NCBI GenBank assembly: GCA_963924565.1
Contig: OZ004609.1
Span: 17,360,001 to 17,424,000, forward strand
Reading direction: 5' to 3'
DNA from: Ascidiella aspersa
Lineage: Eukaryota
Length of the DNA: 64,000 nt
Positions 11,177 through 64,000 of the stretch are shown here, in pieces; position 1 is the first letter of the stretch; every line of letters begins with the position of its first letter. The notes beneath the pieces are model-generated. The model searched no databases and was not told the DNA's origin. It was given only the letters and a program-made list of their open reading frames with translations. The position numbers and the translations under genes were made by a program.

Positions 11177-21408
<10,232 letters not shown>

Positions 21409-39700: not shown

Positions 39701-42700
39701 TAGGTAATATATTTAAATATATTCATACTAATATGAGTTGAATGTTTCAAAATTAAATTTATCATCTGCGAATTTGTTGTTAATTGCGAACTCTTAAGAA
39801 TGTGTTTATTCAACTCAAGTTTTCCCGTAATAAAGTGGAAATACGCGCCCTGAGTTTTAGTTCTCATATCAAATGAGGTTGTATAAAAGTCGTTTTCGAA
39901 AATTTATTCCAGGACTGAAGAAGATGACAGCATTAAACGTCGACAAAGAGTACGTACAGGATAGGTCGCTAGTGGTTCGCTGGGACCCTGTTGGGGGCGC
40001 CGAGTGGTACGAGATCCAAATCGAACCCAATACCGTCGGCGTGTCGGGTATCGGGGATATCGAAAAGCGGCAGTACACGAGGATCGAGAACCTGACCCCT
40101 GGAACTTCGTACCTTATTACAGCGGTGGCAAAGAATCACAGGATTTTCGACACCGCCAGTTTGCCGGCAACCGTTGAGCAGTTTACAAGTAATGGTGGAA
40201 TCAATCTTAATTCAATGTTACTTAAAATAGACTGTTTTTACGTTTTTTATGCCGATGTAATACCTGAATGTCTTTTAAACATCGACCAAAAGGCCAAAAA
40301 GTTGCGTTTGAAGTACCGGGTTTATTTTTGTGTAATGTAACATATAATGTTTGATTTTGTTCCCCGGCAGGACTGTCAAAACCTCACAACCTAACAGCTT
40401 CCTATAACAACGTCAGTCACTCATCAATGACAGTCACGTGGTCACCTGTGCCACATGCGAAAATCTACCAGTTACTGGTGTACGACTGTAGTGGAGTGGA
40501 TCGCACCACTATGACAAATGGTATTTCGTTTTTATATAAACGACGATAAACCCATTTTACCTCCATACCTGTTGTACGTAACAGTTAAATAAATATAGAA
40601 TACTGTATGCCTATAGAACGATGAGTCGTCTACAGCACTAAATACTTCGCCCTTCGAATATATTTTATCTATTCGTAACAGACATATTTCTATTCGAAAC
40701 AAACATACTTATGATTACTTGGATTAGAAGAGATATGAACAGTCTCATAACGCGTCTTTTTTTACAGGTGTAGTGAAAAGGCCCATTATCACGAATGTTC
40801 TTCCGAACAAGTATCAAAAGTACAGAAACTACTGGTTGTATTCCTACCCAAAAGTACAAACTCTGAGCCTAAAGTGCGAGCAGGCCTTCGATAGCGTTGA
40901 AGACGCCTTGCTACAAGGTGAAAAGTATTAAGTTTTAGTAAATTGTGTTTCATGTTATTTTTGTTGCTCAGTACTAAACTGTTGTGTAGGGAACACGTTG
41001 CTCCGAAACAGTCTCAATAATGAACTCATATGCTACATAAGCGTTTTATTAGCAGTATGAATAACGGATCCTAATCCAAATCCACTATATGGGCCAACAG
41101 GTAAACCATACATTGCACAACGCTTTGTTGAATGTAGTCCTCTTATTATAATACAGGCGCAACACACCTCCCAAGTAAAGTGAAAGGCCAAGGATTTGTG
41201 ACGTCAAATGTTGTCACTCTTACAAACATGAGGCCGGGCGTTAAGTACGAAATCATTGTTGTATCTGGAGCAAACGAGACCAGAAGCAACCCTAGTCGGA
41301 TACTACAATACACCAGTAAGCCTTTTTCAACATAGATCACAAGTTTGCGTTTACAGCTATTCGTGTAATTACAATTTATTCGGGATTTTTCAATACTAAC
41401 TTCTAAACCAAATTTTGAGAGGCTTAGTTGCTATTATATTTGCATTTGACAATGTTTTTTTACCTAACGGAAGGAACGGATCTATTTTTTTCAAGGGAGT
41501 ATAACAAAATAGCAGCACAGGGTTTGTTGATACTTAACGGTTAACACTGTAAAAGATAAGATAAGTGCAGCGACACTTGCTGTGCTCAGACTTTTAAAGT
41601 GAAATCGAAGCTAACACCTGTCTAGATACCATTGATAATAATTATCTTGTGCTTAATGTTTGCCAACCCGTTTGTTTTGCTTTGGACACATTGTAATTCT
41701 CAGTCAACCGATTTCTTGTGACGCAGAGCTAACGACACCGGCCAAATACACAATCGATCCCAAACGGATTGAACCTTTCTCTGTCTATCTGACTTGGAAT
41801 CAGGTTCTAGGTGCCAATTACTATCGCCTGGATATTTTTACTACACCTGTTGTTGAACGTGCATCGAAGTTAAAGATGGGTATGTCCTGCCTTGGCTTTA
41901 ATTTAAAGCAATTGAAATTACATTATCCTGTTACCTTATCCCAAGTGAATATAGCATGTGTTCTCAACCTTTTCTTACCGCGTATCCTTAATTTACTTTA
42001 GTTATACCGGAATTTCTCGTGAAATGCTTGCATGTTTGTATTTATAGGTTTGCTAGTTGCTTTATCGTTAAATTACTGTACCAATATAGTGGTGTGTGAA
42101 CACAGGTTGAGAACCCCTGCAAAATGTGGTATTGGGTTAGGCAGACGATAGTGGTTTAATAACATGTGTGCGTTACTTTTCTGCAGCTTCCATCCAACAA
42201 AAGTACGTGCATACCATCAACGTAACGGGTCTTTTTGTGAAAGCCGGGCCACTGAACCCCTCAACGAATTACACTTTTATGTTAACTGGTAAGAATATTT
42301 CCTGCTTATATTTATTTTTACTTAATCAACTCCTTTAAATCAAACGTAATAGGCGAACAGTGTTCCTTAAATATTGTATTAAGTTTTGGTTGTGTTTGGT
42401 TATCTTACTTTTACGAAAATCGCAAACATTCTTTATTTAAAAGCGTGCAACAGTGACACAGAAAGCTTCCCAACTAGCACTTCGACGTTCACCCTTCTGC
42501 CTCGACCTTCTGCTTTTAATGCTGAGAACGTAACAACTAACACGATCCTGGTGCAATGGTCGTCAGTCAACCAAGCCATGTACTACAATGTCACCTATAC
42601 AGCGGGCAGCAATAGAGGGAAGCGTAAGTTGTTTACCTTATTGTATAGGGTTGGGAACTTAAGGTAACATTTTCAGCTTTTGCATATACATTGGCATTAC

Positions 42701-45700
42701 ACAGTTTGTATGCTGTTCATAAACACGAGCTTTAATTTAGTTCGTTTCTGCTCGTTCTCGTGTTTCCCAGACTCGCGCAATTCGGGTTGATAAAATTAGC
42801 ACATTAATAATTTATTGTCTATTACGAGCATCACCTCGTTAACTATTAAACGAGTTTTGCAATTCGACGCCATATTTTAAAACCTCCACAGGCTGGTACC
42901 AACTTTATACGTACTTTGAATTATACTTAGGTTACTGTCACAATTTTTTTTAATGTATCCAGGTGAACATTACGGTATATGTATCAATAAAGGACAATCA
43001 ATTGCATACCATACGACTTGTCTTTTTTGCGCAGTGAGTTGTATATGCTCTGGAGCCAAATGGGAGTAGAGCCTAATACTTTTTATTATGTGTCATATAC
43101 AGGAATATATAACGTATTTTTTTAATCTAGAGTAGACATATCCTACTTTTAAATTTGTGAACATAAGGAACGGTGAATCCAGACCCTCAACGAAAAAAAT
43201 GTGACTCAGGATAAACACCGAAGTAATGAAGGAAACTCACGTGACTTCATACTTTACCCACCCCTATCGTTTCATATTGAAAATAAAGAGGTTGTAAAAA
43301 CGCCCACAGTTAAATTGCCTTTAACCACAACCGCAGGTCAAAACCCACATTCAAAAAATGTGTCGACACCAATGATATTCCTCAACCACCTGCTTCCTAA
43401 CACGCTTTACTCGATGTACATCACTGCACAGAACAAATATACCAGAAGCGTTCCGGTAAAATTCGCCAAGTACACAGGTAAGCAATCATGTGCTCACTGC
43501 CTGTAAACGGTTATAGTAATATTAGTAAAGTCGTGTAATTTGTTTCAGAACTTCCGGTCCCCGAAAACTTTACAGTTGCTCGAGTTACCGACTCTTTCAT
43601 TTACCTCACTTGGTCAGATGTGGAAGCAAGAAAAACTTTCGAGTAGGTTTAACAACATTTCTTTCTATTTCGGACAAATGACTACACTTGACTTAAGTCA
43701 TTTGGACAACTCACTTGGGTTGAAATGAGGTGTTTTCTTTAAGAATTTTTTTTATAAAATTGAGCTAATTATTTAAATGTTTGCACATAAAACAAATTGC
43801 TTGCTATATGTTGCGTTGCTCTAATTATGACTTGACTGGGACTTGACTTGCGCAACTGATGACTTGGACTGGGACTGGACTTGACTTGTTATTTATTTAT
43901 AAAGACTTGCCTTGGGCTTAAGCTATTTTACAAATGACTTAACTGGGACTCAATTCATTTCAAAATGAATTGTTTCCAACACTGAGGTTAATATGGTAAA
44001 CGTTATTTGTAAATCTTTCAAGAAGAAATTTGAGAAAAAGAAGTTAAATAAACTAATAAGATTTATTAAGAAAAAATATTTAAATATCAATTAAATTTAA
44101 ATGTAATTTTAACTGTATTTAAAAACGTTGACGAAACAATAAGCTATTGTAAATACCTTATGACTTGTTGAAACACTTCATACAGCTTAAGTACAAAAAT
44201 AGACCATTCTGACAGTTGTCATGTTTATGTTTGTGAGTAGACACAGCTAAGTAAAAACGTTGTTATTTAACTCCAATACTGTTTAATTTTTCAACTATGC
44301 AGCATAGCCTACGTGCGCTATCCAAAGGTTCCCGAAACCTTTCGCGAAAGTTCAGACAAACCCGAGAAAGCGCTCGGTCCCCTTGCAGCCAACACTCCCT
44401 ACCGTATCTGGCTGCGTTCCGCTAATTTGCACACTACGAGCAAAGTGTTGGAGAAAGTCCAATACACAAGTAAGTGTAATACAAAGAAAGAAAATTTCCT
44501 AATATTTTAAATTTTTTAGCGATTGCTTTTTCCCTATTTTTTAGAATTAAGATCTCCGCAGCAAGTTTCCTTCAAGTCTGTTGTGGACAGTGAAAAAAAG
44601 CTTCGCATTCGATGGCAACTGGTCGAAGACGCTGATTTATATAAGTAAGAAAAAGTAAAGTTAATGAAAAATTTAAAACTTATAGGTCTTACTAAGTATT
44701 CACATTAAAATTCTCATTGAAGTTATGTGTATAGTTAACATTATTCTCAGTAAAAGTGTTTTTTACTGTGTGATGTTATAACAGCCTTGTGGTGATTCCA
44801 CTTTACAACGAATCCCAGCCAGGATCAGCTGAGTCGATCCCGGCCTCACTTCTTACAGACGTCATTGAAGTTGGAAAGTCGAAAACACGACAGAAACGAA
44901 GCGAAACGTCACCTGGGTGCGTACAGGATTGCGAAATACGGAACTTGTTCATATTTTTAACGATACATATATATAGGGGACTTAGTATATTATATAACCT
45001 CTTTGTTATGCATCTTGTTTCACCTTTGTTTTCGTGTAAATATGCCCAACTCGAATCGAATCACAACCAGCGGGCAGCTGACTAGATGACTTAACAGTCT
45101 TTCGCCGCCCCCTGGGAGCTACGGACCCTTTCTGTTTTTATTCAATTTTTTGCATGTATTTACCATTGTTCTAAAATAAATGTAAATCCATCTATCTTAC
45201 TACTCATAAAACATTAAAACATGAAGAAACAGCAACACAAAACCTTTCTGCATACAACGACAGAAAAATCGTGCATATTACCTCTTTAGTGTTTATTTTC
45301 TAATGAACCGACTTTAAATAGAGAAACACACAGCCGTAAAAAGCGCGTCAAACGAAGTGAAGAAAGTCCGATCGCGAACAGCAACGCGATCAGCTACATT
45401 GACTACAGAAGCTTGAGAAAAAAGAAGAGCAGTTCCGGATTCGTGGAGGTTGAAAAGTCGCGCTCCTTCGCGAATATGAAAAATGAGTATCACGTCAACG
45501 TCACTTCTGGTGACGTCATTTTAAGCGCGCTCGAGTCGGCGGTAAATTATCGCGTAACCGTTCGGGCGATTAACGAGAATACGGACAGCGCGTCAGTGGT
45601 CATTCACAAGTTCACGGGTAAGAACTAGTGAGTTGTAGAATCATTTAATACTTGTATAAATGCACCTTTTGGATAATCATTAACATATTTAATAATTCTT

Positions 45701-48700
45701 ATATTTACTGTGGACCAGTGCTTCCCAACCTTTTATAGTCCGAGACCCACTTTTGTTTTATTATATATAAAAATATAAAATGACCACAATATAAAATGAC
45801 CAAACGAATAAAAAACAAATTAATGAGGAAATAAGATTAACATTTACATAATACCTGCATTTACAACTAACGTACGTACTGAAATAGTTAATGCGACTCA
45901 ACACATCTAATTGTTACGTATTTGTTACTATGTTGCATAAATGTTACGTAATGATAATGCAAAAATTTCCCGATCTAATAGAAAACTGTTAAATTTAGAA
46001 ATGCTTAGCGACCCACCCGAAATAGCTTCGACCCACTGGTTGGGAAGCACTGCTGTAGACTATAATATAACAGGGTGTATCTTTTGTATCTTTATTGAAT
46101 ATAAAGCGATTGAACTGTCTGCTTGTCGACTACTGTGTATATAAACAAGAAGAACTACATAGCTCTGCTTTTTGTCGTTATTAAAATTACAAGATAACTC
46201 ACACAGACTTGGAAACGCCGCAGTCGGTGGACACAAAGGATGTCACCAATGACACGTTTCTCGTGCGTTGGGTGAGCGTTGCCAAGGCGACCTACTACCA
46301 GGTTCGCATCATGCCCGAGACAAAAAGCTGGCTTCCGTCACTCTCCATACCTTCCGGGATCGGTAACACGACCAAAATTGAGGTGAGCATTTTTGTCAGA
46401 TTAACTGTTTACAATTGTATTATTTTAATGGCTGGAAATCATTGTTAGATGTAAAAGAAATATCAAGGCCGATAGTAAAATTGGTATCAATTTGTAAATA
46501 TTTCAAATTGATCTTTATTATTTATAACATGGTGCAATAAACCACTACTTTCGTCATTGTGCTGAAAATATATAAAGATTTTCGAAACCTTTACAAAATG
46601 CTACTAAGAGCCGGGTGCTTATGATTGTTTTCTTTTTCAGATGTCTGTACGTGGAATGCAACCAAACACGAATTACACCATATCGGTAATGGCGGGTAAC
46701 GATCACGTAACCAGCAAGAAGGCTTCAGTTTGGCATATAACAAGTAATACTAATCACTCAGCTAGTCAAGTCTAGAATGTGTGTAATAAGGTCTATAGGC
46801 TAGGCCTGCCCAACATATGGACCACAGTGATTGAGCACGAGGTCATGCTACCCTAAAACTATATTGCTTGCCAACCTTTCGTATTTAAATACAAAAGCAT
46901 TTTTTTTAATTCTTATGTGAATAATAACTATACAAAGTGCAATTTCTGTGAAGTTAGAATTGAAATGCCATTATTTAGAGCAGTGTCTCCCAAACTGTTT
47001 TGTACTAATGCCCCCCTTGCCTGAAGTGATTTTCGTAACGCCCCACGCCCTATCACTTGTTACAACACACCTGGGGACAGATTTAGAATGCTTGAATGGC
47101 GAGTTATATTGGTACGCTAACAGGTGCCTTATTAAAACAAAAACAGTAACTAGTAGTATGGTTTACACAGTATAATTTAAGGAACGATAAAACTTGTATC
47201 AACACCTCCTAATCTGGATTTGTCCCCTCCCCCCAATGTAAAAAAATTGCATACCAGTTAGCTTGAGAACAACACATGTTTGTAAGACTAATTGTTTTAT
47301 GTAACTTTGTAGCGTCATCCCTAAAATTTTCATTCGCCACGAGATTTGTAAAACCTAATGACTGATAACAAAAAAACAACAAGAGCAGGTATTTTTCTAT
47401 TCTTCTTAACCCGGCGATATGGAATGCACGTTACAATCGCTATATCAACCTTAGTGTGTTGCCCGTGAATTTATTTTTCAAGCTTGTAGTGGCCCTAGAC
47501 CATTTTGAGTTATGCAGGCCTGACTTAGAAAAATAAGCTATAGAGGCCGAATGAAAGGTTTATAGCATAAGTTTTAAAAACGAAATAGCATTACCCAGTT
47601 TAGGGAAATCCTGGATTTCTTATTTTTCATTTGTTTTTAGAGCCCGGAAAAGTCATTAAAGACATGTTTTTTAGGTGATACGTACAATTGTAAATATGAC
47701 AGGATTGGAAGAAATTCGTTGTTATGCGCTTTAGTAAAAAAGTTATAAAGTCACGAACATTTAATAATTTGTTAAAGAGGAACACAGTAAGAGTTTTCAC
47801 GGAACATTGAAAGCAACATTTTTGTTGTTTTTTGTAGACTAATAGCGCATGTTGTCATTTGAATTGTGGCACCATCTTAAAACATCATATACTATACGCA
47901 ATACGGTATCTGAATACAGTTGAAAGTTCACCTTCTTTGGCCAACCAATGGTGATATCTTAAGAGCTAAGTGTACTTTTAAAGCTCAAAAGTAAATTCAT
48001 ATAAACGATATATTATTTGATATTTTCAGTTTAAAAAATCACCCTATTTATTTCCACTTATCTTTGTCGTTGCAGAGTTGTCTCCTGTGGAGAATCTGCG
48101 CATTGTGCAATCCAGCGTCAAGCATGATCGCTTCCATTTAAAGTGGAGCCGAGTGCATTTTGCAACTAAATACGTCATACTCATTTCGTAAGCAAAGCTC
48201 CATATTTGGTATAAGTGTAAATACGCACCGAAGGTATAGCATCCTTAAGTTTAAATCCTACTTTATTGTGAACTTATAAATGTTTCACAAATCGGTCGTA
48301 TGGATTTTGGTCTTTATTATACAACATGGTGATTTGTGATATTATGTATCGTTGTCAGCACTTCATAGAATAAAATTATACTGGTTAATAATAATATCAG
48401 CGGATTGTTTTTTAGCTAACTTACTCCGTTGTTAAATATATTTGAAGCAGATTGTATTTAAGCCGTGGTTAGTGAGATGGCCCCGTATAGTGGAACAGTT
48501 AATATTCATTATGTTCGTGGTACTGAACGTAAATAGAAAATATTGTTTTGTTATTCGAACTTCTTTGTAGACCGCCTACGAAGGATCAACGCGAAAAATA
48601 CCAGGTGAGGAACGGAGCCACCGAAGTAACCCTGACCAAACTCAACTTCGGTACTAAATACCACGTCACCGTAATAGCGGAGAACGTTAGGACAACCGGT

Positions 48701-51700
48701 GTACAACGCGACATCTATCAGTTTACAAGTAAAAATACAAACTATATCAATTTATGAGAATTTTACGTCAATTAAAATATAATTTTTTATTGAAAGTGTT
48801 TTTCTATGTAGCAGTACATTATGTTTGTAGATATATTAATTAGCTACGTCTTCTTTGACATACATAGATTTTATTTATTTTTTAAACTCATGTATTAATC
48901 GTGATACGCATAACATTAGTTAAAATGGTCTACCAATGAAATATGTTCAGAAATCCTGTGGTTCAGCACTATTTATCTTGCAAGCTGAATTTGTTTTATA
49001 TAAACCGATATCTACGCCGAAAACACCAAATTAAGTGGTCGTGAAAGATTTTATTTGTCGTTATACCTCAAACAGATTATTGAATATGACGAAGTCATTT
49101 CTTCTTGTATTTTTTTAATTTAAACCGTTATCCATACCAGCAGTCACCAAATTATGGAGAATAATCTTCTGGCCCGCAACTATTCGGATCGGTAACATTT
49201 GTTGGATAAACAAAAAGACACATAAAAAAGACATCTATTTTTACATATGTTTTCTATGTTTAGTGTAAGTTAAGTCAATAAGTCAACAGAAAATGTTATA
49301 TCCGGCCCAAAAAGTTTGGTGACCCTTTTAACCTAAACTATCCTTGGTGTATTTTTGTTTAGAACTTTTGCCCCCGAGAAACGTCACGATTGTTCCTGCC
49401 TCTGTGACGTCATCAAGTTTCAATGTTCGTTGGCTCCGTGTACCTACTGCAGATGACTACCAAGTTATTATAGGAAACCGCACCAATGCAACCGCTTGGA
49501 TAATTCGAGTAAAACAGTAAGTTACAATGTAGAGCTAATTTTTTATCAATGTAGAGCTTATTTTTTTTTTAAATGGACAACATGGTGTTGCGCAAGATAT
49601 TTTTTATGTAGTTTCGCGAAAACAGATACTTTTAGAACGTTCCTTTTTTAAAGAACGGAACGTTAAGGCCTTATGTAAAAAAAATATTTAGAAAACATAT
49701 TTGTACACTTTTGTCTGTAACTAATCTTCAATAAAGTAATTTAAAAATCATTTTTAAAAATGCCCTAAAAAAATCTGGATTCGCCCTGCTTGTTGTGTGT
49801 GGCCCGCGTACAATCTGCAACGAATTTATATATGACTTGCAATACTAAGTTGATAGCGGTAGGTTAACAAGCCTATCCACCATTGAAGAAAAAACATTTA
49901 CTTCATTATTGTACCAGTTGAATGTATTACAACTAAATTTCGTTATTTTTCATATTTTTGAATTGTAATGGCGATGATGATAGATTGCTGTAAGGGGCGA
50001 CATGTATATAAGTTTAAGAACCACTGGTTTATTGGACTCCGTCAAACCGAACAAAAAATAACATCATCGTTGGAAAACAACACTTTCCGGGATTAGATTA
50101 AAGTGGGGCTAATACCTGTTTAATAGTCGCCCCTCACGGCAATTCATACATAACGGAATAAGGCGTAGCCTATATCGGAATAAGACTTGATCCCGTCACA
50201 ATACCCTCTACCTATACGGGTTTATAAGGCATCTAGGCTTATTCCGATGAAGGCCTTATTCTGTTATGCAGGCTTATTTCAAGGTGCAGTTATTTTTTTC
50301 GACGCTACCTGTTTGATTTAGATATTTTAGCTTATAGGTCTTATTTTATGTTCCTTGTTTATCGGTTAGCCCTGATTGTCATATACTTTCGCATTTAAAG
50401 CTTTGTTTGTGACTATAAGCTAGCGCCAAGTGGACTTGGATGCCTTTAAGAATGCAACTGTTTCTAGCCTAGGCATTTTACAAGTAGAATCTATACCTAC
50501 AGACCGTTGCACAAACTACAAGTATACCAAGTTGGCCCTGTACTGGTTTCTCGGGTTATACTTAAATAATTATGTCAAAGTATAACACACTTTCTTAAAG
50601 TCATTCTAAATCTTCTTTAAAATAAAAGCTGCCCTTAGTTCTTTGTAGTATTGCTAGTTCCGGTACTATTTATGCATGATGAAAGATATGCATTATGCAA
50701 AGCAGCACTACTAGGATACAACGTTAAAATGCAATGTTTTTTCTTACTATACGTTTTATCAACATATTTTCTGTTTAACAACTGCTTATTCAGGCACCAA
50801 CAACCCTATTTTAACAGTCTCTTTTTTACCCGAGTGGAACATTCTTCAATTTAAACTGGTGTTTTACATAACATGAGTTTAGGAACTCTTGTTTTTTTCA
50901 GAACTGTGGCTGTTATAAATGGGCTAAGTTCGGGTGAACTTTATAATGTAACTGTGACTGCCCACAACTTAAAACACAAAACTTTCAGCGACCCTGTCTC
51001 CGTACAAAATTTTACAAGTAAGTTGGGTTATTTTTTGCAAATAGGATGTTAGTCAATGTTCAGTGAAGCTTATCGTTTTTAAACAATGGTAGCAGGGCGA
51101 CCGCAACTCGATATTTATGCAATGATGAGCGTTAACCTAATTTGTTTAATAAACATAAAATTTCGTTATAAATAGTAGTTGCATAAGGTGCAAAATATAA
51201 ATTATTTTGTCAGAAAACGTATAAACGCCGAAATAAACTCCGCCGCTTTTATTAATGTGAAGCCTTATATTGCTGCTATACTTACAGAACTAAAAACTCC
51301 GGAGAACTTTACAATTTCCGATGATGACGTCACCGCTACTTCATTGATAGTGTCCTGGGATCCGGTACCTTTAGCAAAGGAATACATCGTGATTGTGGGG
51401 GTTGAAACCAGGGAGGATGACGATTACGAGTAAAACGATTTTTTAATTTTTGTGTAATCGTCTTGCATTTAACTGTATTTAGTTTTTTGTATTTATAAAC
51501 AAACCGTTAAACACTAATTTAACATTATACCATTTTTTCAAGGATATTTCTGCACATTAAGAAAAAGCACTTCCGCATATCCACCACATCTGTGTTTGTG
51601 AGGGATCTTCGCCCTGCATCATACTACTTGGTGGCGCTAAAGGCGGTTAACAAAGACACAGAGAGCTACACGGTCCTCCTCAACAAGTTCACAAGTATGT

Positions 51701-54700
51701 CGCTCTACCATACGCTTAAAATATTTACCTAAATTGTTAGAATTCACTCATTGCTTTAAAACCTTGTATTACCCCCATTTCGTGCTAAGAGTGTGTTTTT
51801 AAACAGAACTGCCGCTACCTCAAAACGTCACACTTCTGACACAATACTACATGGACACGGAAGCTGAACTGGATTGGCGACCGGTCGAGGCGGCTGAGTT
51901 CTACAAACTTGAGGTACATACTGTGTAAGCCCTGCTCTTCAAACTGTTAATCAAAAAGGTTACCAAACAGTACCCTAAAAAAGGTTACTTTGAAGGCACA
52001 GGTGTAAAATATTTTAATATATTTATCCTAATGCTATTAGATATACGGAGTACGGAACCTTAGTGCGGAGGTACAAGAGGTAGAAGATGCCGAACTTGCT
52101 GATGATGACGTTGAAGGACCAACTGAACTCACAGCAGCCAACAACCTCACAGTTCTGGTAAGGTGTCACTTTCGTAAAGCTTGTATATTCGTCTGTATAT
52201 GTTATACTGTCTGCAACGTTAAATTAACGCACTAAAAAGTTAATCACCATTAATGAAATGCCCATTTAACACTGGGGTATTTCTAGATTCGACAAAGGGT
52301 AAATGACTTCCATTACCACACAGTCAAGGGTTTAAGTCCAAGTACTCCATACAGAGCCGCTGTGCAAGCGTTTAACGAAGATACTTACAGTTTCAAAGGC
52401 ACCCTTGACTTCCTAACTAAATGTAAGTAAAATTCTGCAAACTGCACGCGATGTTAATCGTTGTCTAACATGAGTTTTCCACTTGTAACATAGCCCCATG
52501 TTCCGAGGACTATCACCACTTTCCCAACACTCATCTCTCACAAACTCTGCCCCTGAGAACAATTTTCAACTCGACCGCCAAGCAATGTCTCCAACTTTGT
52601 TGCGATGAACGTTCTTTCGAATGTGTGTCCGTGTCACTTCACCGAACCACCTCAGCTTGCCTTTTGTTCGCCGAAGATCGCAACACAGCTCCACCACTCG
52701 CCATTAGTAGGGTAAATATGGATTTAAACATTGTAGTTGTTATGGTAAACCCGGACCAAATGTTTTCACCTTTTGATCTTGCTTTTATCGTTGTAACATA
52801 GTGAGATGTATTTTGTACAGACTTATGACCACTACGAGCGAAAGTTCTGGCAGGAAGTATCAGGATTCCAAATCAGGTCGATCACTCACAACAACGTCGC
52901 TGTGATGAACGAAACAGTTGAACTTACACTGACAGTAAGATTTCTTACGCTTTTAAAATTAGCCACATGGACCTATAAGTTATGTATTATTACAGTTTGT
53001 GTACCTTGGAAAGGGCGGTTGTGTGGCTTGGGACTTTGGTGACGGCGGTACGGCATACCATTCTATTCTGGACAGCAACTGTTCTCATTTTTGCAAAAAT
53101 AGTGCGGATGTCAATTGTACAGTGATCAACGCTGACCCAAACAACAACCAGAATAAAATTAAAATCAGGTAACGACCTCCGATTTAGTTTTCATAAAGCA
53201 TATATTAAAACTCATTTATCGTTAAGCAGAAGTTTTAATATAATAAATGAAGCGTGATATTTGTATAAAATTAGTCAAAATAAACTTGCAATACTAATAA
53301 TACACAAACATTAAATTAATAAGTTTTAACCAAATGGAATTTAACTATTAAGTTTTGCGCATAAACTATATGCTATTTAGTATCACTTAAACTTAAAGTA
53401 ACCTCAACTTTTTATGATTTAACTAATTTACCATAGTGTTTAAAATATTTGCTTCATTAATCCCCAAAAATGCATTTTTCTTGATTTCCGTGCATATAGT
53501 CACGACTACGACATGGAAACGATATTCAAGGTGGTTGTAAATGTTACTTACTTGGACTCTTACGAAGTTTCAACAGTTAATGTCGCTATCAACCGAAGAG
53601 GTTGTATATTTCCTGGAATCATTATAGAAGAAGAGGGAAAGGTAAAATTATAAGAAAAAAACAAAAAAAACTTGATTATATGTTATTGTAACATTGTCGA
53701 GTGATTTCGGTAAATTGCTGTTTTGTATGCTGTTTCTTGCTTGTAGAATAAAAATGACCCAAAGAGGATCTTTCGCTCTCACAAGATGCTGATGTCGGCC
53801 ACTCCGAATATCGTGTGTAACAAGTTCCCAGGTGTCCAGTTCATTTGGGGCGCAGTCAGTTTTGCGGGTAAATGTCCTTCAATTACATAACGTATATATT
53901 GTTGTAATTACTTTATTAAAACCTATACCCTACTATAGCACTGAAATGCCCGCCATGATTTTGCATTCTTAGTTAACGTACCTGAAAACGAAGAAAAGGG
54001 TGGTTGATTTTTAGTCGAATAAGACAAATTTAGTAATACAAAAACCTGGTCTAAATTTGATTTGCAGAGGATGGAATCACCCCCACAAGTAGCTTTCCTT
54101 TGACTGCCCTTGGTTCTGAGATTATGGTTCCCGCCCTCACATTTCCACTGGGCTTGTACCGAGTATCTGTGGCAATTACTGTCTTAGATGACGAGCAGGA
54201 CCTTACCGATGTAGATGCCATATACGTGCAGGTTGAAGCGTCGCCTCTAGTTGCTCGAATTAAGTAAGTAAAAAACAGTGATTTTTAAAAACCCTTGCCG
54301 GTTTGCAAATAGTTTCTAGAGTTTATCTGCATAGTGTTTTTTATTGATTAAGATTAGAATAGAAAATGGAATTTAAACGTATTCCACCGTGGAGAGGACG
54401 AGGGCATTGTGAGCCGATTATATTTTTATGGATTTGGATCCTATCCCTTCTTATGTAAAAATCATCGTTGTGGGCTACTTTTTTTAAACATAATACGTTA
54501 ACGTGGAATGCATTATGTTCCAGGGGCGGTTCGATGCGTACCGTTGGAGCAAAGCGTATAGTGACGTGGGACGCAGCGTCTGAGTCTATCGACCCTGACG
54601 TTGTTGGAAATCGACGGAAAGATCTCACGTTCGACTGGTTCTGCCAGAACTACACGGACACCAAGTCAGGATATCTACAATTAATTTAATCGCTTGTCTA

Positions 54701-57700
54701 AGTAAAACTTAAAAAGTGTTCAAATCCAAGCACTATTTGTTAGGAAACAATATTTATAAAGAAAACTTCGTTTCAAGCCTTTGAAACTTTGTTTTAAGCC
54801 ATTTAACTTATTAATATTCATCCTAATTTACCACATACGAGAAACCAGGTAGCCTATTAATAAACTGGCGTAAGAGTTATAGGCGGTTTCACAATAAACA
54901 CTAACTTTAGGTAATTTTTATTTCTCAGATTCTTTCTCCTGGAATCAGGAAGCTGCTATCAGGATATGAGTCAACTAACTTTCTCTGGTCCAGGAGTATT
55001 TAGTCTTAACACGAGTCTCATGGAATTATATGTGGAGTACCAGTTCAGGGTTGTTGTCAGAAAAGGTGACAGGAAAAGTTCTTTCAAGCAACAAGTCATT
55101 GTTAAGGAGGGCGATCCTCCAGATTTTCAAATCAAGTGAGTTTTTTGTTAATAGTACACTACGCTTTTTGTTTGTTTTAAATCGGTTGTACAAATTACGC
55201 AAAGCCCAAAGAGATACATACAGTTTATCGTGAATGAAATTTTAATGGTGGTATATCCAACTGACACCGTATAGATATTTCAAGTGGTGTATTATAATCG
55301 CGAGAACAGTGTTTATAGTTTTGCTAATCATATAGGCGTATATGTAGTTACATAGATTTCTTTCGCGCTTAGTGCTGTCGTCTTTAGCTTAATTAGTACC
55401 ATCATTTCAGCATTATCCAATCAATAGGTTTTGGAATTATTTTTATAGACAAATTTATGAATGTTTAAAACCGTATTTTCGCATTTTGATCAGATGCGGT
55501 GAGAACTGTAAGGAGAAAATGAACCCGACCCAGGTCCTGGCGTTACAGGCTGTGTGTTACAACTGCAAGGCACGACGTTATCCTGAATATAAGTGGAGTT
55601 TGTTTGAACTTATATCTGAGGAGAAGAACGGAACAAGTAACAACTCTACCACTGGTGTGATAGCAAACTTTTCCATTATACAACAAACATAAAGCCAGTA
55701 TCAAAATGCAGTTAATGAAAGATACACACACATATGTGTTCAACAACTGTGATCTAGCCTTTCTGAAGCTGCTTTTTGACCAACGATTACGGCTTACGTA
55801 TCTTTAGTACACCGTGATGGCTTTCGGTGTACTAAAATGCAGTTAATGCGAAATTTAATCGTTTTCAGTAGCATTTTTATATTTATTTCAGTATAGATTG
55901 TGATTGAGTAAAAAATTTATAAGCCTACTAATGTTTCAAGTGGAAATACCATTCCTCCATTTGTACCAACCTGACTTCTAAATTAAAGGCATGTCTGTAA
56001 CATCTATATTTTTCTCTAAATCTCAATAAACATGCGAAATTGTGCGAATAACAATTTTTACCATCAGATTTATTTTATTAAGTGTGCGTTCATGCACCTC
56101 TTTTTTCCATGTATACAATGCACTATTTTATAGTATTTGTAGCACTGTTGAAATTTTCGAAGATTTTTTAAATTTGTTGACTTGTATAAGGTCTTATGTG
56201 TTTTTACTTTTCAGCTTCAGGAAAGCGGGGACCTGGAAAAGTCACTTACGTTGAAATAGTAAGTTGTTCGGTCTGATTAAAAGTGTCACCCACGACAGCA
56301 CAAAAAAATGTCGTAGTATCGTTACATTGACAATTTTCGTAGTTTGACTGGGAGAACAACTCGACCACCGGTGCGAACAAAACGGTTGTAGTTTTGAATC
56401 AGAACGCGCTCGTGGGTGGGCGCGAATACGTCATGCGAATCAACATTTCAATGGACGGCTTCGACGACCGGGTTTACAGCTTCTCTGAGTTTCGATTTAT
56501 CACCAACCTTCCGCCATACGGTGGCGAATGTACAACTGCTGCATCAGTAGGTAAGAAATGAGAACTATTGGCAAATAACGATGAAATACCTTACATTGCT
56601 AAACAAAAGCTATACGTACGTCCGTCGTTCAGTAAACATCGGTCCAAGCTTAGAATTTAAATAATGAAATTTCAGTTTTAAAACTTTTTTTGAACATTGC
56701 ACCTATTGTCTTATAAAGTTGATTTAAATCTCATGTGAATGAGAGACTTGTTATTAAATTAGCGTGATTGTCGCCAACGAAAATATTATCCTTCTGGCTT
56801 TTTTTTGGTTTTGCTTGTTGAACTCAATATGCGCAAATTATGCGAATGATTTAATGCTAGCCAAGATTTTAATGTTATTTTTCATGCACTTCAGGAAACT
56901 GTCACGATTTCATTCCTTACCGAAGTCAGCGCCTGGCTGGAATCAGACCAAAGCAAAGACTTAATGACACTACAATGGAAAAATGCGCGCAGTATTGCTG
57001 TTTGACCAGGTTAGATACTTAAAAATACATATTTTTATGTTTTAGGTATAGCATATAATATTACACTTTCACTGTTTATAATGCAGATATTTAGAACAGA
57101 TTCTGGTTTCAAATGTTTCGTATTAAAACCTAAAGTCGTACGCACCTGTCTGTATAGTTTTATCGAGCAGGGTTTTATTGTACATCCCTCCTATACCTAA
57201 CACACAATAAATTCAACACAACACATTCTTTTGAAACGAGGTATTTTTGGTGCTCAGCAAACCAGCATATTATCATTGGACGAACGCGGACAAACAATCT
57301 TGTCCATGTTCTTCGACAAACTATCGAGCAATCCAACACACGAGTTGCGCACCTCCCTGGCTACCAAGCGTAAACTGACCACTTCTTTTCCGTCCAGTTC
57401 CTCGAGTGCTCGCACGAAATCGCCGACACCAGGGCTTTTGACGAACTTACTTGCCAGATCAGCCCTGGTCAGGTAGTAAAGCGAAAGTGCCTGCAACAAG
57501 ATATTATGATAAATTGACTTAGCCCACGAAAACAAAAAGTTGATTTGTAAGCACTGTATGACTGCCAATCAGGCGGAAAGTTTGTGAGTTTGTATTCTGG
57601 ACAATGTAATGCGCCGTGGTAATGCAGACCACTGAAAGTTATTGTACACAAAAGAGTTATTGGGGGCTTACCACTTGACCAATATATTTGGGTGCCTTTA

Positions 57701-60700
57701 TCTACTGGTTTATGACAACACCTGGATTTGATCCTAACAAATAACGACATGTTGCACTGTACTACACCAATCATCTTCAGAAACCTGCAAAAATGCGGAA
57801 CTCTCTCCCTCGACCCGTCTCACTTCCTCGATCATGTCTCCCTGCACCTCTACGCCGAAATTGTTGCCGTCCTGCATGGCCGGTATCTGCAGCTGGACCC
57901 AGGCACGCACTGTGTTGCAGCACTCAGTAACAGCGCGCAGCTCCGGTTTGAGCACCTCTATCATACCACAGATGAGTGGGTTGCATTCTAGGACCGCCTC
58001 CGGGGTCGACTCTTCGTCACTGTCGCTCTTGTCACTGTCCTCCTCTTTTGGTAAGTTTCGCTTTCGGCGCTGCTTTTCGAGCTTTTGCTTTTTGCTTTTC
58101 GGTTCTTTGACCTGAGGTTTAAGACAGAGGGTGAAGGTTTTCGTTTGATAAAAAATTAACGTTGATGGCAGTATACAAACGGCGAAGCAAGTATTGGAAA
58201 GCCGATAACAAACACAAGTAGGCTAGTCTGTTTTGAACGTTTTTCACGCCAGGATCCTGACTGCAATCCATCATTTGTAGCCGCCAAAGATTCACGCCAA
58301 ATTTTTTTTCGGCTTAAATCCTACGCCAAAATAGGACAATATATAACCCAAAAAGGACAATTTTTAACAATTCAGTATGTGTTTGGACTGACTTTTTACT
58401 TTTGACGATTTACCATGCCTATAAATTGTTTTATGTTGCACTGAATATGTGAATAATAGAAATCACCTTGACCCTTGCAAGATAAATGTCGACCTTAATT
58501 CCTGATGAGTAACAGCAAAATAATCTAGCAAAGCTAGCAATTCAGGTCAGACACATTAACCAGATCTTAAAAAGATATATATATATTTCGCCAACTAAGG
58601 TATCGTCAGTATATCTTAATTCGAATTCGATTATTTTTTATTTTTTGCTGTATAAATTGTTTTGTAAGACTTTTGTCTTTTAAGGGTGTCTTTTAAGGGT
58701 AGGTAATATTCTATAGACTAACTTAAAAGTTTATCAAACTGGAAGCCCCGAAAGACCTACCTCCAACTCGGAATCCGAGTTAACAGGTGTGAAGTAGTGA
58801 TCGTCGCCGCTACTGGCGTTTTCTTCTTGAGCTGTTCGTTGTGACACCTGAGGCAGCGAACTCAGATCAATTTTGTCTTCATTGCTTTCCACATCCAACT
58901 TGAGTCTCCTGCAGCTTTTGCGTAAGTGCTCCTTTACTTGGAGTATGCTGGCGTCCGAGAACTGATCGCTGTTGAGAATAGAGTGGAAACGGCGACACAG
59001 GTCAGGCAGCCGATTTTCAAATAGGGCCTGAGCGTCTTCTCTTAGCCTGGAACTAAACTCTTCCATAACTCTCGTTTAATTTTATTCAAAGAATTGCCAA
59101 AAACATTTCCTTTTTTGCTGAGGCTTGGCAGCTATTGTTTTTTCGATTGTTACGCCATAGTTGTGAATACAATAATAAATTATAGGCATTTTTATTACTT
59201 GACTTATTTACATACACACAATATCAATATTGTGCAAACATTAGTTCCATCACGTAAATAATTTTAACATAAGATAACTGTTTCTACTGCAGTAATCATG
59301 TTTGTTGATTGCACAATATGTTAATAAGTAGAAGCGGAATTCAAATGAATGTAACCGAACCTGAACCTGTATTAAAAGGGGTTAACTTCAGTATGAAGTT
59401 TATGACCTAATGAGCTAATTTATACAATGTTTAAGGCTACATTTTTTTTTCTTGTTATATCAGACAATGACCAGGTGTCAAGGATAGCCTGCATAACTAT
59501 TTTTTTATCATTTATGATTTCTGCGTGTAACAAATTGCAGATGACCGGGTAACTGAAAAACGTAGTACCAAAGTCACAAGCGCGATTGACGGCGACCTTA
59601 CAGATGGATTTAAGAAAGTATTATAATTTAATTAGGTATAGGCTACTTTGTTACTTGCTTAAAAAGATTATCTATAACTTGTTAAAGTAGGTGATTTTCC
59701 GTTGCTTGGAGTTTTTACTAATTTGCCTTTAAAACATCAAATATTTTTAAAAATACAACCTTTCGAGGCCCACTTTTGTTTTGAAAGTATTCCGTGGCTC
59801 ACTTCTTAAAGTTCTGCTTAAATTGAATGTAATGTGTAAGAAATCAAGAGTACCGTACCTTAAAAATGTAAAAAGAAGAACATTTTTTAATAACCCACAT
59901 ATAACGCAACTGTTAGTGCGAAGCTTGAGAATGTACTGTAAAACGAACTAAAGAATTAAAGAATAAAACTAAAATTTTCACCAACTTTTTGTCCAAAATA
60001 CTTTATCCAAATGCACTGTGGCCCAACTCATGTTAAGAACCCGTGTCATAGAAGGTAAGCAAGGCACAAGGTGTGAGGGTTTAGGACTTTTTTGTGGACC
60101 ATTTTTTTACCAGGGGACGCCAACTAATTTCGAATAGCAGTTGTACTATCCGGCATAACTTTATAGAGTCTTCATGTGCCTTTCGGTATCCTTCAATCGT
60201 ATGACATCAGAATGTGAACTGTTTGATGAAAACAAGGAGTCAGCAAAGCGAGAACTAAAGTATGAGCCTCATGTAGACCACTTTCAACGACTTTTCTACA
60301 GAGGAGGAGCTGTTGTAGACGAGGTAAAATGACAAGCTGCTGTTTTTCATTAAAGCAAAACTCTACTGCAACTTTCTTTAAAGATCGTCCTTGAGAAATA
60401 TGAATTGCCACAAAGTATTAGGAATGTATTTGCTTCAACAGATCGTGTTTGAATGTCGCAACTGGAAAGACGAAGGAAAACTAAAGTCGTACCCGAAAGA
60501 AGGCGAGCGCCAGCCGAAAAGCACTCTCACTTACAAATTCACGACTCTACCACAGTCAAATCGAACTGAGCGTTTGTTGCTTTATTTTGGAAATGTGCTT
60601 ACTACCCCAGGTTCGCTTTTCTATTGATAATAGTCGGTAATGTGTAACAACTTGCTATGGCGAAAAAATATCCAAAAAAGAAGCATTGTGCCTAAGTGCA

Positions 60701-63700
60701 GTGCCTAAATCCTACATGCCAAATAGCAAATGACTTGGTTCAGTCTTAACATCAGGCCATTGGCAAGTTGGGCGTTGCGAAAAGTGGCTACTCGATCATT
60801 ACTGATATTATTTACCCGTTCATTTTGTAACCATATCTTTTGCATTTTGCGTGTTGTCTAACATACGTATTAATGTTAATTTTTTTTTTACTTTTTACAG
60901 GCATCTCGATGGCTTTGGGTGATTCCGCCGATGATTACGCCGTCACGGTCATCGTTCAAGTTTGTGACATGTTTGGGGAGTGCGCTCATTCTAACGTTAT
61001 ATACCTGCAGGTGATCTCAGAAACTAGGAATAATCTCTTTGACTACTCTATTTTAAGTTGAATGTTTTTTAGGGCGGTGCAAGCGACTTTCAGCTTTCAG
61101 TACCAAAAATGTAGGCTATACAAGTATACATACACGTTACTTAATCACTTTGTGAAAGATATAAGTTGTTTTCCAAGCAAGACAGAAAAAAACACGGACG
61201 AACTTCAGCGTATGTTTATTATGTTTAAAATAGGGTACAAGGTCAAATTTATTCTTGCGAAACATTGTTTTGTCGACTCATGTGCTGTATAAACACATAA
61301 AACTCAAACTTTAAAAACCAAATAAAAAGCATGATATATTCGTCTGTTTTTTACCCACTTTAGCCTTTTCCCGAGAGGAACAAAAGGATTTTCCTTTTCC
61401 GACACAATTTATTGCATTGTGTATAATATATCTTTATTCTCTGTAGTATCCCGTTTCTTTGTCAAAATTGCCTGAATTTTAATTTATTTTTTGATATTGC
61501 CCTTCGGGGTTAATTATTCACAGAATAAAAAACACCGATTTAAATAAATTAATATATTGCCACAGTAGCAACAATATTTTCTGTAAAATTTAAAATATGC
61601 ATGGAATCGCGATAAACAAACAAACGTAAATAAAAAAGACCATATAAAACAAAAATGCAATAGCATGACCAAACGGATCTAAAAAGCAAAATGGTTGAAA
61701 CAACAATCCACAATTGGTGGACAAAAAAACTGAACTTTACTGAGATTTTCAATATATTTGTTTAATTGGTAAATATGTTAACGCTATTATCCTGCTGAAG
61801 GAACGTATTAAAATTTTATAATATTTTTAATAACTACGAGTGTTTTTGTATTTCTAAAGGTTGTGCCGCCCAACTCCAACAGCATGGGTGCAACGTTGTC
61901 GGGCATAACGAGTGGAAACGCAAGCAAGCTTGCTATTCTATCAGACACTGGAAACAGCAAGGCAGCCGCTCAACTTGTGCAGTCAATATGTAATGCTAAT
62001 ACATAACTGTTTTGGCTTACCGCTCTAACTAAGCAATACCGTTGTAACAAACGTGTTTAATTTGTGTTGTGTGTTCCTTATTTCTACTTTACTTTATTAG
62101 AAGTATTGTGCGTTTGCTATATATGATACCAGGATGTTTTAGATGTTGATATGTTACTAAATTAGGGTGTGAGGTGTTGTTTCCGTGTTTTGAAGTGTTT
62201 CTATTTATCGCTGTTTTTTTTTCTTTACCCAGCCTCAATTATTAATGTGGACGACGATGAGATTGACGCTGTGATGAGCAACTACTCTGTAAACTTTACG
62301 AGTACCTTGGCCTTCACGACCACAGCAGCCCCCATCACGACATTAGCTACACCTACAACAGTCGCTTACCTCGGAAATGGGTCGAGAAACGGGTCGGCGC
62401 GGATCGATAAAAACGATAAAAAACAAGTAAGTATTTTTTGTTGTTGTACAGATAAGCGAACTATCGCATCTTTAAGAAAGGCATTTTGAAAACATGGTAG
62501 TAGGCTATTTGTGTAGAATTTAGAAACTTTAAGGGTTCCCTAAAACAGATACCGTGTGCCTTGTCGGTGGTATTATATTTGAGTTGCACTTGGCGCAAAC
62601 TCATATTAAAAGTAATTTACAAACACTGGATGCACGCTTTGAAGACTGGTCGTAGGTCGTTGCATTGTTTGATGACAATAATTGCAGAGGACGCTATTTG
62701 TCTGTAAAGATCGCGTGGAACTTACACGAAAGACAGAAGAGATTCGATTTAACAATTTCTGTGTTAATATTTAAAACCGTTAAAAATCGAAACTGGTGGG
62801 GTCATGACTAAACCCGTCCCTGAAAAAAGTGTTTACGATATACCCAATCATGTAAAAACTCCCACTTGTTTTTGCTTAGCTTGGGTATCTGTTTAAGGGG
62901 TCGCAACCGCGTGAGTTCTTGTTGTTTGCAAAGGCTTCTGGTCAGATATGCTACCTGTCATAACCCAACTAAAATTCAAAAGTATATTGTTACAACGAAT
63001 TAAAACGTTATTAAATAGCATTAGTGAACGTTATTTTCAAGTTAATGTGAGACAGGCAGCCACCGCCTATTGCAGCGACTTCGCAAAAGACTTCTCTAGA
63101 AAAAAGCTCAAAGCCGCTAAGAAACGACATGTATATAGCCAATACGTAGGAAAAAAAAGTACACGAAAGTTACGTTATATTTGGCCAATAAGACTGGCCG
63201 GCACTCTAAAACATGGCTTAGGCATTACAGCGGCCATTCTAAGGCCAATTTGCAGCGGGAGTCAGACGCCAGCAAAACAAGTGGCTTGTGTTGCAGAACG
63301 TGAGAACACTGCCTGCAAGACTGACAGTTATAGATTACGAGATTAAAGGTTACATGTCAAGTTTGAAACGAGGCGAACTGAAGCAGGAAAACACAGGAAT
63401 TTTACACACAACAATACGGAAAACTTTGCATCATCAAATATGATATGTAACTGAAGAACATATTTGGCAAACGAAAGCTGAAACGTGTAATCTAAAACCC
63501 TATTTATCACATCGTAAAATAACTTAATGAACTCTAAGATTTGGCTTATGGCAATTAATTAATTTGGGTGTTTAAGTGTTGATAAACACGTAACAGTATC
63601 TTCAGAAAAATAAGCCGCGGGCCGTATGCTGCCCAGGTCTGCTATATAGGTTTATAATGTAAACTGTTGCTACCAATGACAATAATCATAATAATGATAA

Positions 63701-64000
63701 TAACAATAATAATCAAGCACAGCTCATCATGTAATTGGAATTGTTAATCAACGTTTCGGCAACCTATTCGCTTTTTTCAGGTTGAAATGATTTAATTACT
63801 TAGCATTTGCTGTGTAGGGAATAAAAGTGTATCATTATATTGACGTTTAGGCATATACCTGATGTTTCTTAATGAAATATTTTTTTACGATATTATTGCC
63901 TCGTGAACTTCCGCAGCTTCGAGGCGACATTGTGAATGCCCTTTCGGATGCCACCAGTGGAATGACTTCAATTGATAACTTGCAACAGATGACTAGTGCC
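33800..64000 (+). CDS. Polycystin-1/REJ-family (PKD1-like) giant receptor, 3'-partial, ~50 exons: signal peptide, ~15 FN3, PAN, PKD, REJ (with inserted PAN), start of a helical region likely leading into GAIN
   Basis: Signal peptide MHPSLALRLLSLCLVPTVCCG (33800). FN3 exons 34707-52422 show the L..P....V.W...Y / L.P.T.Y...V.A.N..S pattern, mostly bounded by phase-1 introns. PAN at 52494-52850. PKD signature WDFGDG at ~53029. REJ motifs SPLVARIKGGSMR, ESIDPD, FDWFC, NLPPYGGEC, FECRNWKD and VCDMFGE at 53748-61010. The last visible exon starts at 63917 and runs off the window. GPS and TM regions are not visible. Confidence 0.85.
34247..34644. mobile_element. hAT (Charlie-like) MITE
   Basis: Ends cagtggtactcaac / gttcagaaccactg. 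TSD cactagag / cactggag. Confidence 0.8.
36450..36565 (-). mobile_element. Diverged tRNA-like SINE head, related to the 28136-28250 segment
   Basis: The minus strand reads agctcagtaggta (A box) ... gagttcgaattt (B box), followed by gccttgctttgcttaaaacatagg, which resembles gcctgccctgcttacatcatag in the 28.2 kb copy. Confidence 0.55.
36919..37885. mobile_element. Degenerate hAT-type element with a nested TIR element (~37104-37308)
   Basis: Outer ends taggattaccatacg / cggtcagccta. Inner inverted ends cctgattgcattcc / ggaatgcagtcagg, with a similar end (cctgactgcaatcc) at ~58256. Confidence 0.5.
41955..42119. mobile_element. Short hAT-type MITE
   Basis: Ends catgtgttctcaacc / ggttgagaacccctg. 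Confidence 0.6.
43686..43984. repeat. gacttg-repeat-rich MITE remnant
   Basis: Many gacttg/gactgg units ending in ccaacactg, a hAT-like right end. Confidence 0.5.
45716..46052. mobile_element. hAT (Charlie-like) MITE
   Basis: Perfect TIRs cagtgcttcccaacc / ggttgggaagcactg. TSD ctgtggac / ctgtagac. Confidence 0.88.
55718..55833 (-). mobile_element. Truncated second copy of the 27898-28378 element
   Basis: Reverse complement of ~28278-28375, plus an inverted gtacaccgaaagccatca arm. 15-bp TSD aaaatgcagttaatg (55703-55717 and 55834-55848). Confidence 0.8.
57254..59066 (-). CDS. Divergent proteasome activator PA28/11S REG (PSME3-like), ~289 aa, 3 exons (59066-58761, 58111-57785, 57490-57254), nested antisense in an intron of the polycystin-like gene
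   Basis: WVQLQIPAMQDGNNFGVEVQ matches the PA28 activation-loop region (canonical IPRIEDGNNFGV). Also YYLTRADLASK and KNMDKIVCPRSSN. Both introns are phase-0 GT-AG and the ORF is intact. AATAAA on the minus strand at 57179-57174. Confidence 0.88.

Follow-up and report, generated by a model that had tools for sequence, protein, structure and literature searches.

The window, a stretch of 64,000 nucleotides analysed as a whole, contains an FN3-PAN-REJ polycystin gene on the plus strand and a PA28 gene that lies antisense to it, in the intron splitting the second PAN domain of the host. The predicted first coding exon of this polycystin-1-like gene (33761..33860, ATG at 33800, signal-peptide-like) comes from an exon scan and translation. 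Fibronectin type III repeat exons are placed at 36252..51694 by the exon scan; Pfam fn3 matched two of the six tested, both below cut-off. The first PAN domain, delimited by splice sites, is a single exon (52494..52711; PAN_1, E 1e-7) and is not interrupted at the corresponding position, as the first-pass annotation had stated. REJ exons 5' of the inserted PAN (54068..56550) are identified by Pfam REJ on four exons and by 49–68% identity to exons of L027 and L028, and the exon upstream of the split PAN matches REJ (Pfam, E 1e-8). The second PAN begins at 56895..57009, based on the in-frame chain and an orthologous exon in L028; an alternative frame of this exon was discarded because of a stop at the donor. 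It resumes at 60167..60323 (PAN_1, E 8e-6; 57% identity to L027/L028) and continues into REJ. The 3.1-kb intron described previously as dividing this PAN runs from 57010 to 60166 (plus strand, GT..AG, 3,157 bp, phase 2). Of the 14 introns measured in 52494–64000 none is longer, and the host exons between 56343 and ~61990 join into a single open frame across it. Further host exons occupy 60442..64000, and the gene runs on for ~19 kb beyond the window, up to exons for the polycystin and channel domains, with Polycystin_dom and PKD_channel found by Pfam in L010, the downstream part of the host. REJ, Polycystin_dom and PKD_channel are thus Pfam assignments; GPS and PLAT come from motifs alone.

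The nested gene is intact, spliced and transcribed. As first described, it is an intact PA28-like gene on the minus strand, with 289 codons in three exons and zero internal stops. Exon 1 (58761..59066) carries the ATG, helix 1 and a conserved TP..SD motif, exon 2 (57785..58111) a basic and acidic insert, helix 2 and the activation loop, and exon 3 (57254..57490) helices 3–4, an Asp at the PA28gamma Lys188 site, a C-terminal tail ending in Cys, and the stop. PA28_C matches exons 2 and 3 (Pfam, E 2e-21 and 2e-20). PA28_N on exon 1 alone is below cut-off (E 0.004), and the orthologue P0006 bears both domains. Intron 1 contains a young high-copy repeat (58433..58686, no strand assigned; 96–100% identity across 40 scored of 1,340 candidates) that is missing from the contigs of runs X1 and X2.

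RNA reads from a single bulk run, X3, were mapped across 52501–62500. They cover all three nested exons in the direction of a minus-strand transcript, and 68 reads span intron 1 (CT..AC on the plus strand). Over intron 2 the depth is 8x versus 31x; its joint is absent among the 15 of 32 joints listed. A cluster of molecule ends at 59081..59085 (minus strand, 9 + 6 molecules), ~1 kb into the host intron, is likely the 5' end of the transcript. Because these ends fall inside the intron, PSMEc (see below) would be transcribed from its own promoter there. At the other end, read depth drops to 0.64x below 57177, at a candidate polyadenylation signal (AATAAA, 57174..57179, minus strand). Depth is ~74x on the nested gene and ~0.2x on host exons, or ~430 reads (~63 RPKM) versus ~3 host-sense reads over 14 exons. 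The nested gene therefore stands ~400-fold above the host in one RNA run of unspecified tissue, so that its expression in X3 is not attributable to testis.

Paralog identity and age of the nesting

The passages of Fort et al. 2015 (PMC4453063) available to us describe a tunicate PSMEa–d set of four PA28 genes, one conserved and three fast-evolving, and give the length of PSMEc as 262–279 aa. The nested gene clusters with 11 tunicate proteins (support 100/100), apart from the other three PA28 genes of the genome; identity is 44–59% within this clade versus 33–40% to those paralogs. Based on length and clade, the nested gene is likely PSMEc. The original PA28-like assignment is therefore correct but overlooked membership of a published paralog set. 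Consistent with that set, as far as those passages describe it, there are four PA28 loci per genome, a long form of ~260–290 aa, and PSMEc clade orthologues in Ciona, Clavelina and Styela. The same passages do not address the genomic context, intron history, tissue or pore residues of these genes.

The four PA28 paralogs of the genome have no intron sites in common with one another. The canonical PSMEa (C9) has six, C1 one, C2 two and the nested gene two, and none of the six PSMEa sites is common to the nested gene. The PSMEc orthologue in L028 is intronless. Together, these patterns suggest an RNA-mediated origin, and the nested gene likely arose by retroposition.

L025–L028 use this same host intron, with pS of 0.79–0.84 and pN of 0.21–0.29. 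In L028 the intron falls at the same codon and in the same phase, is 8,725 bp long and holds the intronless orthologue. The nesting that the first-pass annotation had proposed looking for in related species is thus present in a second, distant tunicate, and its confinement to one species, which that annotation had tied to a neutral landing site, does not hold. As this second tunicate is saturated at synonymous sites, the nesting is old. Literature searches turned up no prior report of same-intron nesting in a second tunicate. Searches of Ciona, Clavelina and Styela for named orthologues of the host at full length, one of them limited to 2,000 aa, gave contig exon fragments and distant polycystins but no such orthologue.

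The first-pass annotation had proposed a linked receptor–proteasome module, in which the host, a sperm REJ receptor, is co-expressed with PSMEc in the male germline and selection maintains the nesting because regulation, or a role in fertilisation, is shared. Persistence of the nesting beyond synonymous saturation favours this reading. However, comparison across L025–L028 found no conserved non-coding stretch in the host intron, and none of four long PSMEc contigs pairs by size with a host-exon contig (a weak test, in which the control L026/L027 pairs). Moreover, nested structures persist by default (PMC5174743). In Drosophila, nested genes that lie on the opposite strand, derive from RNA, are testis-biased and diverge in expression form a common pattern (Assis 2016, PMC5174743). 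The locus shares with such animal nested retrogenes a small, intron-poor gene placed on the opposite strand within a long intron of its large host, and the loss of parent introns (0/6 remaining). Divergent, testis-biased expression may be a further parallel, given the level gap from the host in one sample of unspecified tissue and an indirect testis link through Botryllus and Ciona. It differs from young nested duplicates in that PSMEc is an ancient conserved paralog, >350 Ma old according to the passages of Fort et al. We conclude that the nesting is old but its position probably passive, and that such an arrangement most likely reflects ordinary genome architecture.

The Ciona s-Themis/v-Themis loci likewise combine a polycystin-1-like host with a gene nested antisense in it. 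In contrast to Themis, the nested gene here lies outside the first intron and bears no likeness to fibrinogen, and the host bears FN3 and PAN domains. Among 141 antisense frames of at least 52 aa in the host span, none is fibrinogen-like (Pfam, E 0.001); matches at that threshold are limited to two PA28 frames and one HTH_psq fragment. Likewise, there is no Fibrinogen_C match at the locus among the matches listed (150 of 315 candidates scored). The locus is therefore not a Themis pair, in agreement with the first-pass annotation. Elsewhere in the genome, the C2 polycystin pair was considered as a Themis locus and discarded (0/65 frames fibrinogen-like). The C1 polycystin-like gene lies head-to-head with a spermatid-type ARMH2 gene, an arrangement that counts in favour of the linked module. 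ARMH2 is not nested, and the idea that polycystin genes here are general hosts of nested testis genes was dropped. Inspection of the other four REJ loci by eye, with Pfam scans of part of the frames, revealed no recognisable gene among their long antisense frames.

Predicted properties of the PSMEc protein

The model of the orthologue P0001 is a four-helix bundle (mean pLDDT 71) whose top Foldseek match is human PA28gamma (E 2e-9), and the nested protein is predicted to share this fold. The four-helix fold and the DGNNFG loop are common to vertebrate PA28gamma/PSME3 and PA28alpha/beta. In sequence the nested protein is closest to PA28gamma, with an acidic residue at the Lys188 site as in alpha. 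It differs from the vertebrate 11S proteins in its independent tunicate duplication, a Glu-to-Gln change in the loop, a longer insert with TP..SD, and a tail that ends in Cys in 6/12 clade members.

All 12 clade members have Asp or Glu at the PA28gamma Lys188 site, a pattern for which literature searches turned up no prior report. K188E turns PA28gamma to gate opening, and an acidic change at this site confers alpha/beta gate-opening behaviour (PMC9287138). With position 192 still basic, PSMEc would open the gate for all three active sites. The canonical PSMEa of this genome has Gln rather than Lys at 188, which weakens transfer of the human Lys188 rule. The activation loop is intact and preceded by Gln instead of Glu in 12/12; the hydrophobic tail ends in Cys, and Tyr ends 5/11 orthologues. 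Given this tail and the loop Gln, the protein may not activate the 20S alone. The long insert combines a basic cluster with the conserved TP..SD motif, which suggests nuclear location and phospho-control.

Spermatid expression and the role of PSMEc

In the available part of a Botryllus testis single-cell dataset, three of the four genes named PSME3 are among the top markers of spermatids. FUN002938, FUN026610 and FUN034234 rank 1, 9 and 11 in cluster 0 and 23, 19 and 10 in cluster 19. The remaining gene, FUN034767, comes no higher than rank 917. Literature searches turned up no prior report of this marking, as far as the sources could be consulted. FUN026610 adjoins IRAK4, as does the C2 paralog, and in the annotation available this was the only synteny link that held; SIRT2, KYNU and HHIPL1 gave no match, nor did C9 neighbours match those of FUN034767. 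The low-ranking FUN034767 could be PSMEc. Spermatid expression of PSMEc is suggested by these data and those from Ciona, with IDs not matched at the sequence level. An egg-to-larva proteome of Ciona contains one PSME3-named protein, and the Matsubara 2021 supplements hold no PSME3 or PKD1 rows. A role of mouse PA28gamma in male fertility is cited in PMC9265791.

A PKD1L1-named gene also appears in the Botryllus spermatid clusters, at ranks 118, 34 and 108 in the part available, so that PA28 paralogs and a PKD1L1-named gene mark the same clusters. The unnamed neighbour FUN034233, possibly a host fragment, is mildly ranked there (735 and 815). In the 27 of 67 places viewed, however, each of the eight PKD-named IDs is more than 100 IDs away from any PSME3 ID. 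Of the germline co-expression proposed in the first-pass annotation, the male-germline part for the nested gene is indirectly supported by the Botryllus markers, and host co-expression is not supported, given the ~400-fold gap in X3. Polycystins are often low-abundance, and 400-fold less RNA would be compatible with the same cells; the ~3 host-sense reads count for the module. Themis pairs, whose partners are receptor and ligand, join a testis host to an ovary nested gene, and the known egg-coat lysin is an ATP- and ubiquitin-dependent 26S proteasome according to an ascidian fertilisation review. We therefore do not retain the linked module, and regard maintenance of the nesting for a shared male-germline function as quite unlikely.

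A second possibility is that PSMEc, with or without PSMEb/d, caps the 930-kDa sperm proteasome of Halocynthia in mature sperm and aids egg-coat digestion independently of the host. That species, with subunits apparently unlike those of the 26S, is left unexplained in the review. Gate opening would lift the LLVY-cleaving activity used in its purification, and 700 kDa plus seven subunits of 30–34 kDa gives about 910–940 kDa. The mass fit is nevertheless weak: 930 kDa would also suit 20S with PA200 or a 26S that has lost part of its subunits, and the original Halocynthia paper reportedly sized the 20S nearer 620 kDa. The protein lacks a signal peptide and carries a nuclear-looking insert, and lysis of the coat requires ATP and ubiquitin (review). 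This role is therefore unlikely. Alternatively, PSMEc could be a somatic or broad activator, for example in immunity or stress, parallel to vertebrate PA28alpha/beta, with neither gene concerned with sperm. The ~63 RPKM in a bulk sample of unspecified tissue and the convergence on the alpha/beta pore residue are consistent with this, and the Botryllus data, from testis only, are blind to other tissues. Nevertheless, three of the four Botryllus genes are stage-specific spermatid markers in the data available, and Ciona eggs to larvae yield only one PSME3-named protein, making a somatic or broad role distinctly improbable. The boldest combination, in which tunicates separately evolved a sperm-specific, PA28alpha/beta-like gate-opening ring of PSMEb/c/d that caps the 930-kDa sperm proteasome, with PSMEc kept in the REJ-receptor gene as a co-regulated fertilisation unit, is very improbable.

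We favour, with moderate confidence, the reading that PSMEc is a tunicate PA28 paralog, likely retroposed, that probably acts as a nuclear, gate-opening 20S cap in spermatids and whose intron position is old and probably passive. PSMEc would be made in spermatids under phospho-control, possibly as part of a mixed ring that also includes the two other derived paralogs, as both mark the same Botryllus cell clusters in the data available, and the gene would ride passively in a weakly transcribed polycystin host. Activator genes, unlike core proteasome subunits, could be knocked out; according to the ascidian fertilisation review, a test of this kind is what the sperm proteasome still lacks. What the three additional PA28 genes of tunicates do was left open in the passages of Fort et al., and a spermatid activator set is a candidate answer. 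Tunicate activators may thus have acquired alpha/beta pore chemistry in parallel with vertebrates, for sperm development rather than antigen presentation.

The nested gene and its polycystin host

Based on an exon scan and profile matches, the host polycystin-1-like gene lies on the plus strand and extends from ~33.8 kb to ~19 kb beyond the window end. It encodes, in order, a signal-like exon, FN3 repeats, a PAN domain, REJ with an inserted second PAN, and polycystin and channel exons. The second PAN is split by the intron at 57010-60166 (phase 2, GT..AG), with in-frame exons on either side, and the minus strand of this intron carries a three-exon gene of 289 codons with PA28 domains. The first-pass annotation had described such an antisense PA28-like gene and a first PAN uninterrupted at the matching position; both descriptions hold, the first PAN being a single exon. 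The 141 antisense frames scanned over the host span yield no gene-like match other than the nested gene and one transposon-type HTH fragment.

RNA run X3 (one bulk sample, ~6% of the run read) covers all three nested exons in the direction of minus-strand RNA; 68 reads span intron 1, and molecules end at 59081-59085, 15-19 bases upstream of the ATG. Estimated from repeat-free bins only, the nested gene has ~430 reads (74x, ~63 RPKM) and the host ~3 sense reads over 14 exons (0.19x), a ratio near 400. From the coverage, splicing, 5' ends and level gap, we conclude that the nested gene is genuine and is probably driven by a promoter of its own within the host intron. Since polycystins are often scarce, this gap is no proof of expression in different cells, which one bulk sample cannot show.

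No ascidian FN3-PAN-REJ polycystin was found in one literature search; exon relatives are present in several other contigs. At 56895-60323 the PAN is inserted mid-REJ module with its 3' end fused to REJ sequence, as also in L028, a metagenome contig of a second tunicate. Depth spikes mark repeats of high or middle copy number within host introns (55714-55814 and 59786-59967), and a young high-copy repeat at 58433-58686 is missing from the contigs of two other runs, X1 and X2. Upstream of the host are a two-module AAA ATPase gene (11093-19550, minus strand) and a GalNAc-transferase-like gene (24126-29380, plus strand), both named from motifs only.

Polycystin-like genes occur elsewhere in this genome (G000). 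At C1:32,874,066-32,909,125 (L033-L036) one on the minus strand appears head-to-head with a single-exon ARMH2 gene across a ~0.8 kb gap, followed by what we take, from a motif, to be a nanos-like gene; a germline cluster with a shared promoter is possible. At C2:33.72-33.90 Mb (L052-L065) two divergently oriented genes have C-terminal exons 90-96% identical and N-terminal parts that have diverged, much as in s-Themis-B/B2; a scan of 65 frames found no partner resembling fibrinogen.

Paralogs and conservation of the nesting

The genome that contains the window (308.6 Mb in 75 contigs) has four PA28 loci, and the window's PA28 relatives are ascidian. The available text of Fort et al. 2015 (PMC4453063) gives tunicates four PA28 genes, PSMEa-d, with an age of more than 350 Ma, and describes data on their role as sparse. 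The nested gene falls with 11 proteins from tunicates, Ciona, Clavelina and Styela among them, in one clade with support of 100/100, outside which the paralogs on contigs C1, C2 and C9 fall. Clade and length fit the published PSMEc, the label we adopt provisionally; as a kind, tunicate PA28 paralogs are already known. Six introns interrupt the canonical C9 gene; C1 has one, and C2 and the nested gene have two each. Because no intron position is shared between any of them, the comparison points to an RNA-derived ancestor that would have gained introns later. The C2 paralog (10.633-10.643 Mb, L021) lies head-to-head with an IRAK4-like kinase gene; Botryllus FUN026610/FUN026611 have the same neighbourhood.

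Nesting confined to this species had been put forward as the mark of a neutral landing site. Metagenome contigs L025-L028, from one other tunicate, hold an orthologue without introns (59% identical), which lies antisense within that very intron of the host (same codon, same phase, 8,725 bp) and among host exons in the same order, so the nesting extends beyond one species. The contigs came from pattern matching, in which five of 62 matches were confirmed, the fifth weak and unrelated. Synonymous sites are saturated between the two tunicates (pS 0.79 and 0.84; pN 0.29 and 0.21), and no conserved non-coding stretch was found in the intron between them.

Outside this pair of species the evidence is weakly against nesting. 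In the part of the Botryllus data available, the three spermatid PSME3 genes have as neighbours ASH1L/KYNU, SIRT2/IRAK4 and unnamed/KLRK1. None adjoins a PKD-named ID, the nearest of the eight seen in 27 of 67 places being 108 IDs off; a host fragment may nonetheless be what the unnamed neighbour represents. None of four long PSMEc contigs matched a host-exon contig in size.

Expression and proposed roles

A Botryllus testis single-cell preprint (PMC12424747), in the part available, uses PSME3 as a spermatid marker. In the searched rows of its Supplementary Table 2, four genes carry the name PSME3. Three of these take ranks 1, 9 and 11 among the markers of cluster 0 and ranks 23, 19 and 10 among those of cluster 19, clusters we read as spermatids from their top markers; the fourth ranks at best 917, in a stem-cell cluster. 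One of the three adjoins IRAK4, as does the C2 paralog here, and thus at least one derived PA28 paralog is a spermatid gene. PSMEc is likely another. A somatic role for PSMEc appears distinctly unlikely; the supplement rows available for the Ciona egg-to-larva proteome (PMC10951915) contain a single PSME3-named protein.

The first-pass annotation suggested, as a speculation, that host and activator form a linked fertilisation module, after Themis. Themis, in the available account (PMC7018956), has a fibrinogen-like gene nested in the first intron and expressed in the ovary, and a host expressed in the testis, whereas here a PA28 gene occupies a PAN-splitting intron. Since it pairs ovary with testis, the analogy gives no reason to expect co-expression. 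The ascidian egg-coat lysin is described as a 26S proteasome dependent on ATP and ubiquitin (PMC9265791, in part), and Drosophila commonly has nested genes that lie on the opposite strand, derive from RNA, are testis-biased and have diverged in expression (PMC5174743, in part). With the ~400-fold level gap in X3, these points speak against the module, which we regard as distinctly unlikely.

Alternatively, PSMEc may cap the 930-kDa sperm proteasome independently of the host, which would give the activator alone a part in fertilisation; the same review, in the part available, leaves that particle unidentified. The calculated mass of 20S with a single PSMEc ring is close to this value. PA200 would also fit, and we consider this role unlikely.

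Where human PA28gamma has Lys188, 12/12 clade members have Asp or Glu, as does PA28alpha, and position 192 remains basic in all 12. In PA28gamma, K188E replaces allosteric activation of the trypsin site by gate opening (PMC9287138, in part). Counting against a gate-opening role here are the Cys that ends the nested-protein tail, an activation loop with Gln in place of Glu, and Gln at 188 in the canonical PSMEa (C9, L017-L018). The other paralogs have Lys (C1) and Gly (C2) at this site. The insert of the nested protein contains a basic cluster, presumably a nuclear signal, and a conserved TP..SD motif, which we take to be putative phosphorylation sites. The predicted structure of an orthologue (P0001) is a PA28 fold.

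In the literature searched, mostly open-access, we found nothing on this nesting, on the pore residue or on a spermatid role for individual paralogs. On balance, we favour a nested gene that is real and conserved, probably encodes an 11S activator of spermatids and probably has a passive host.
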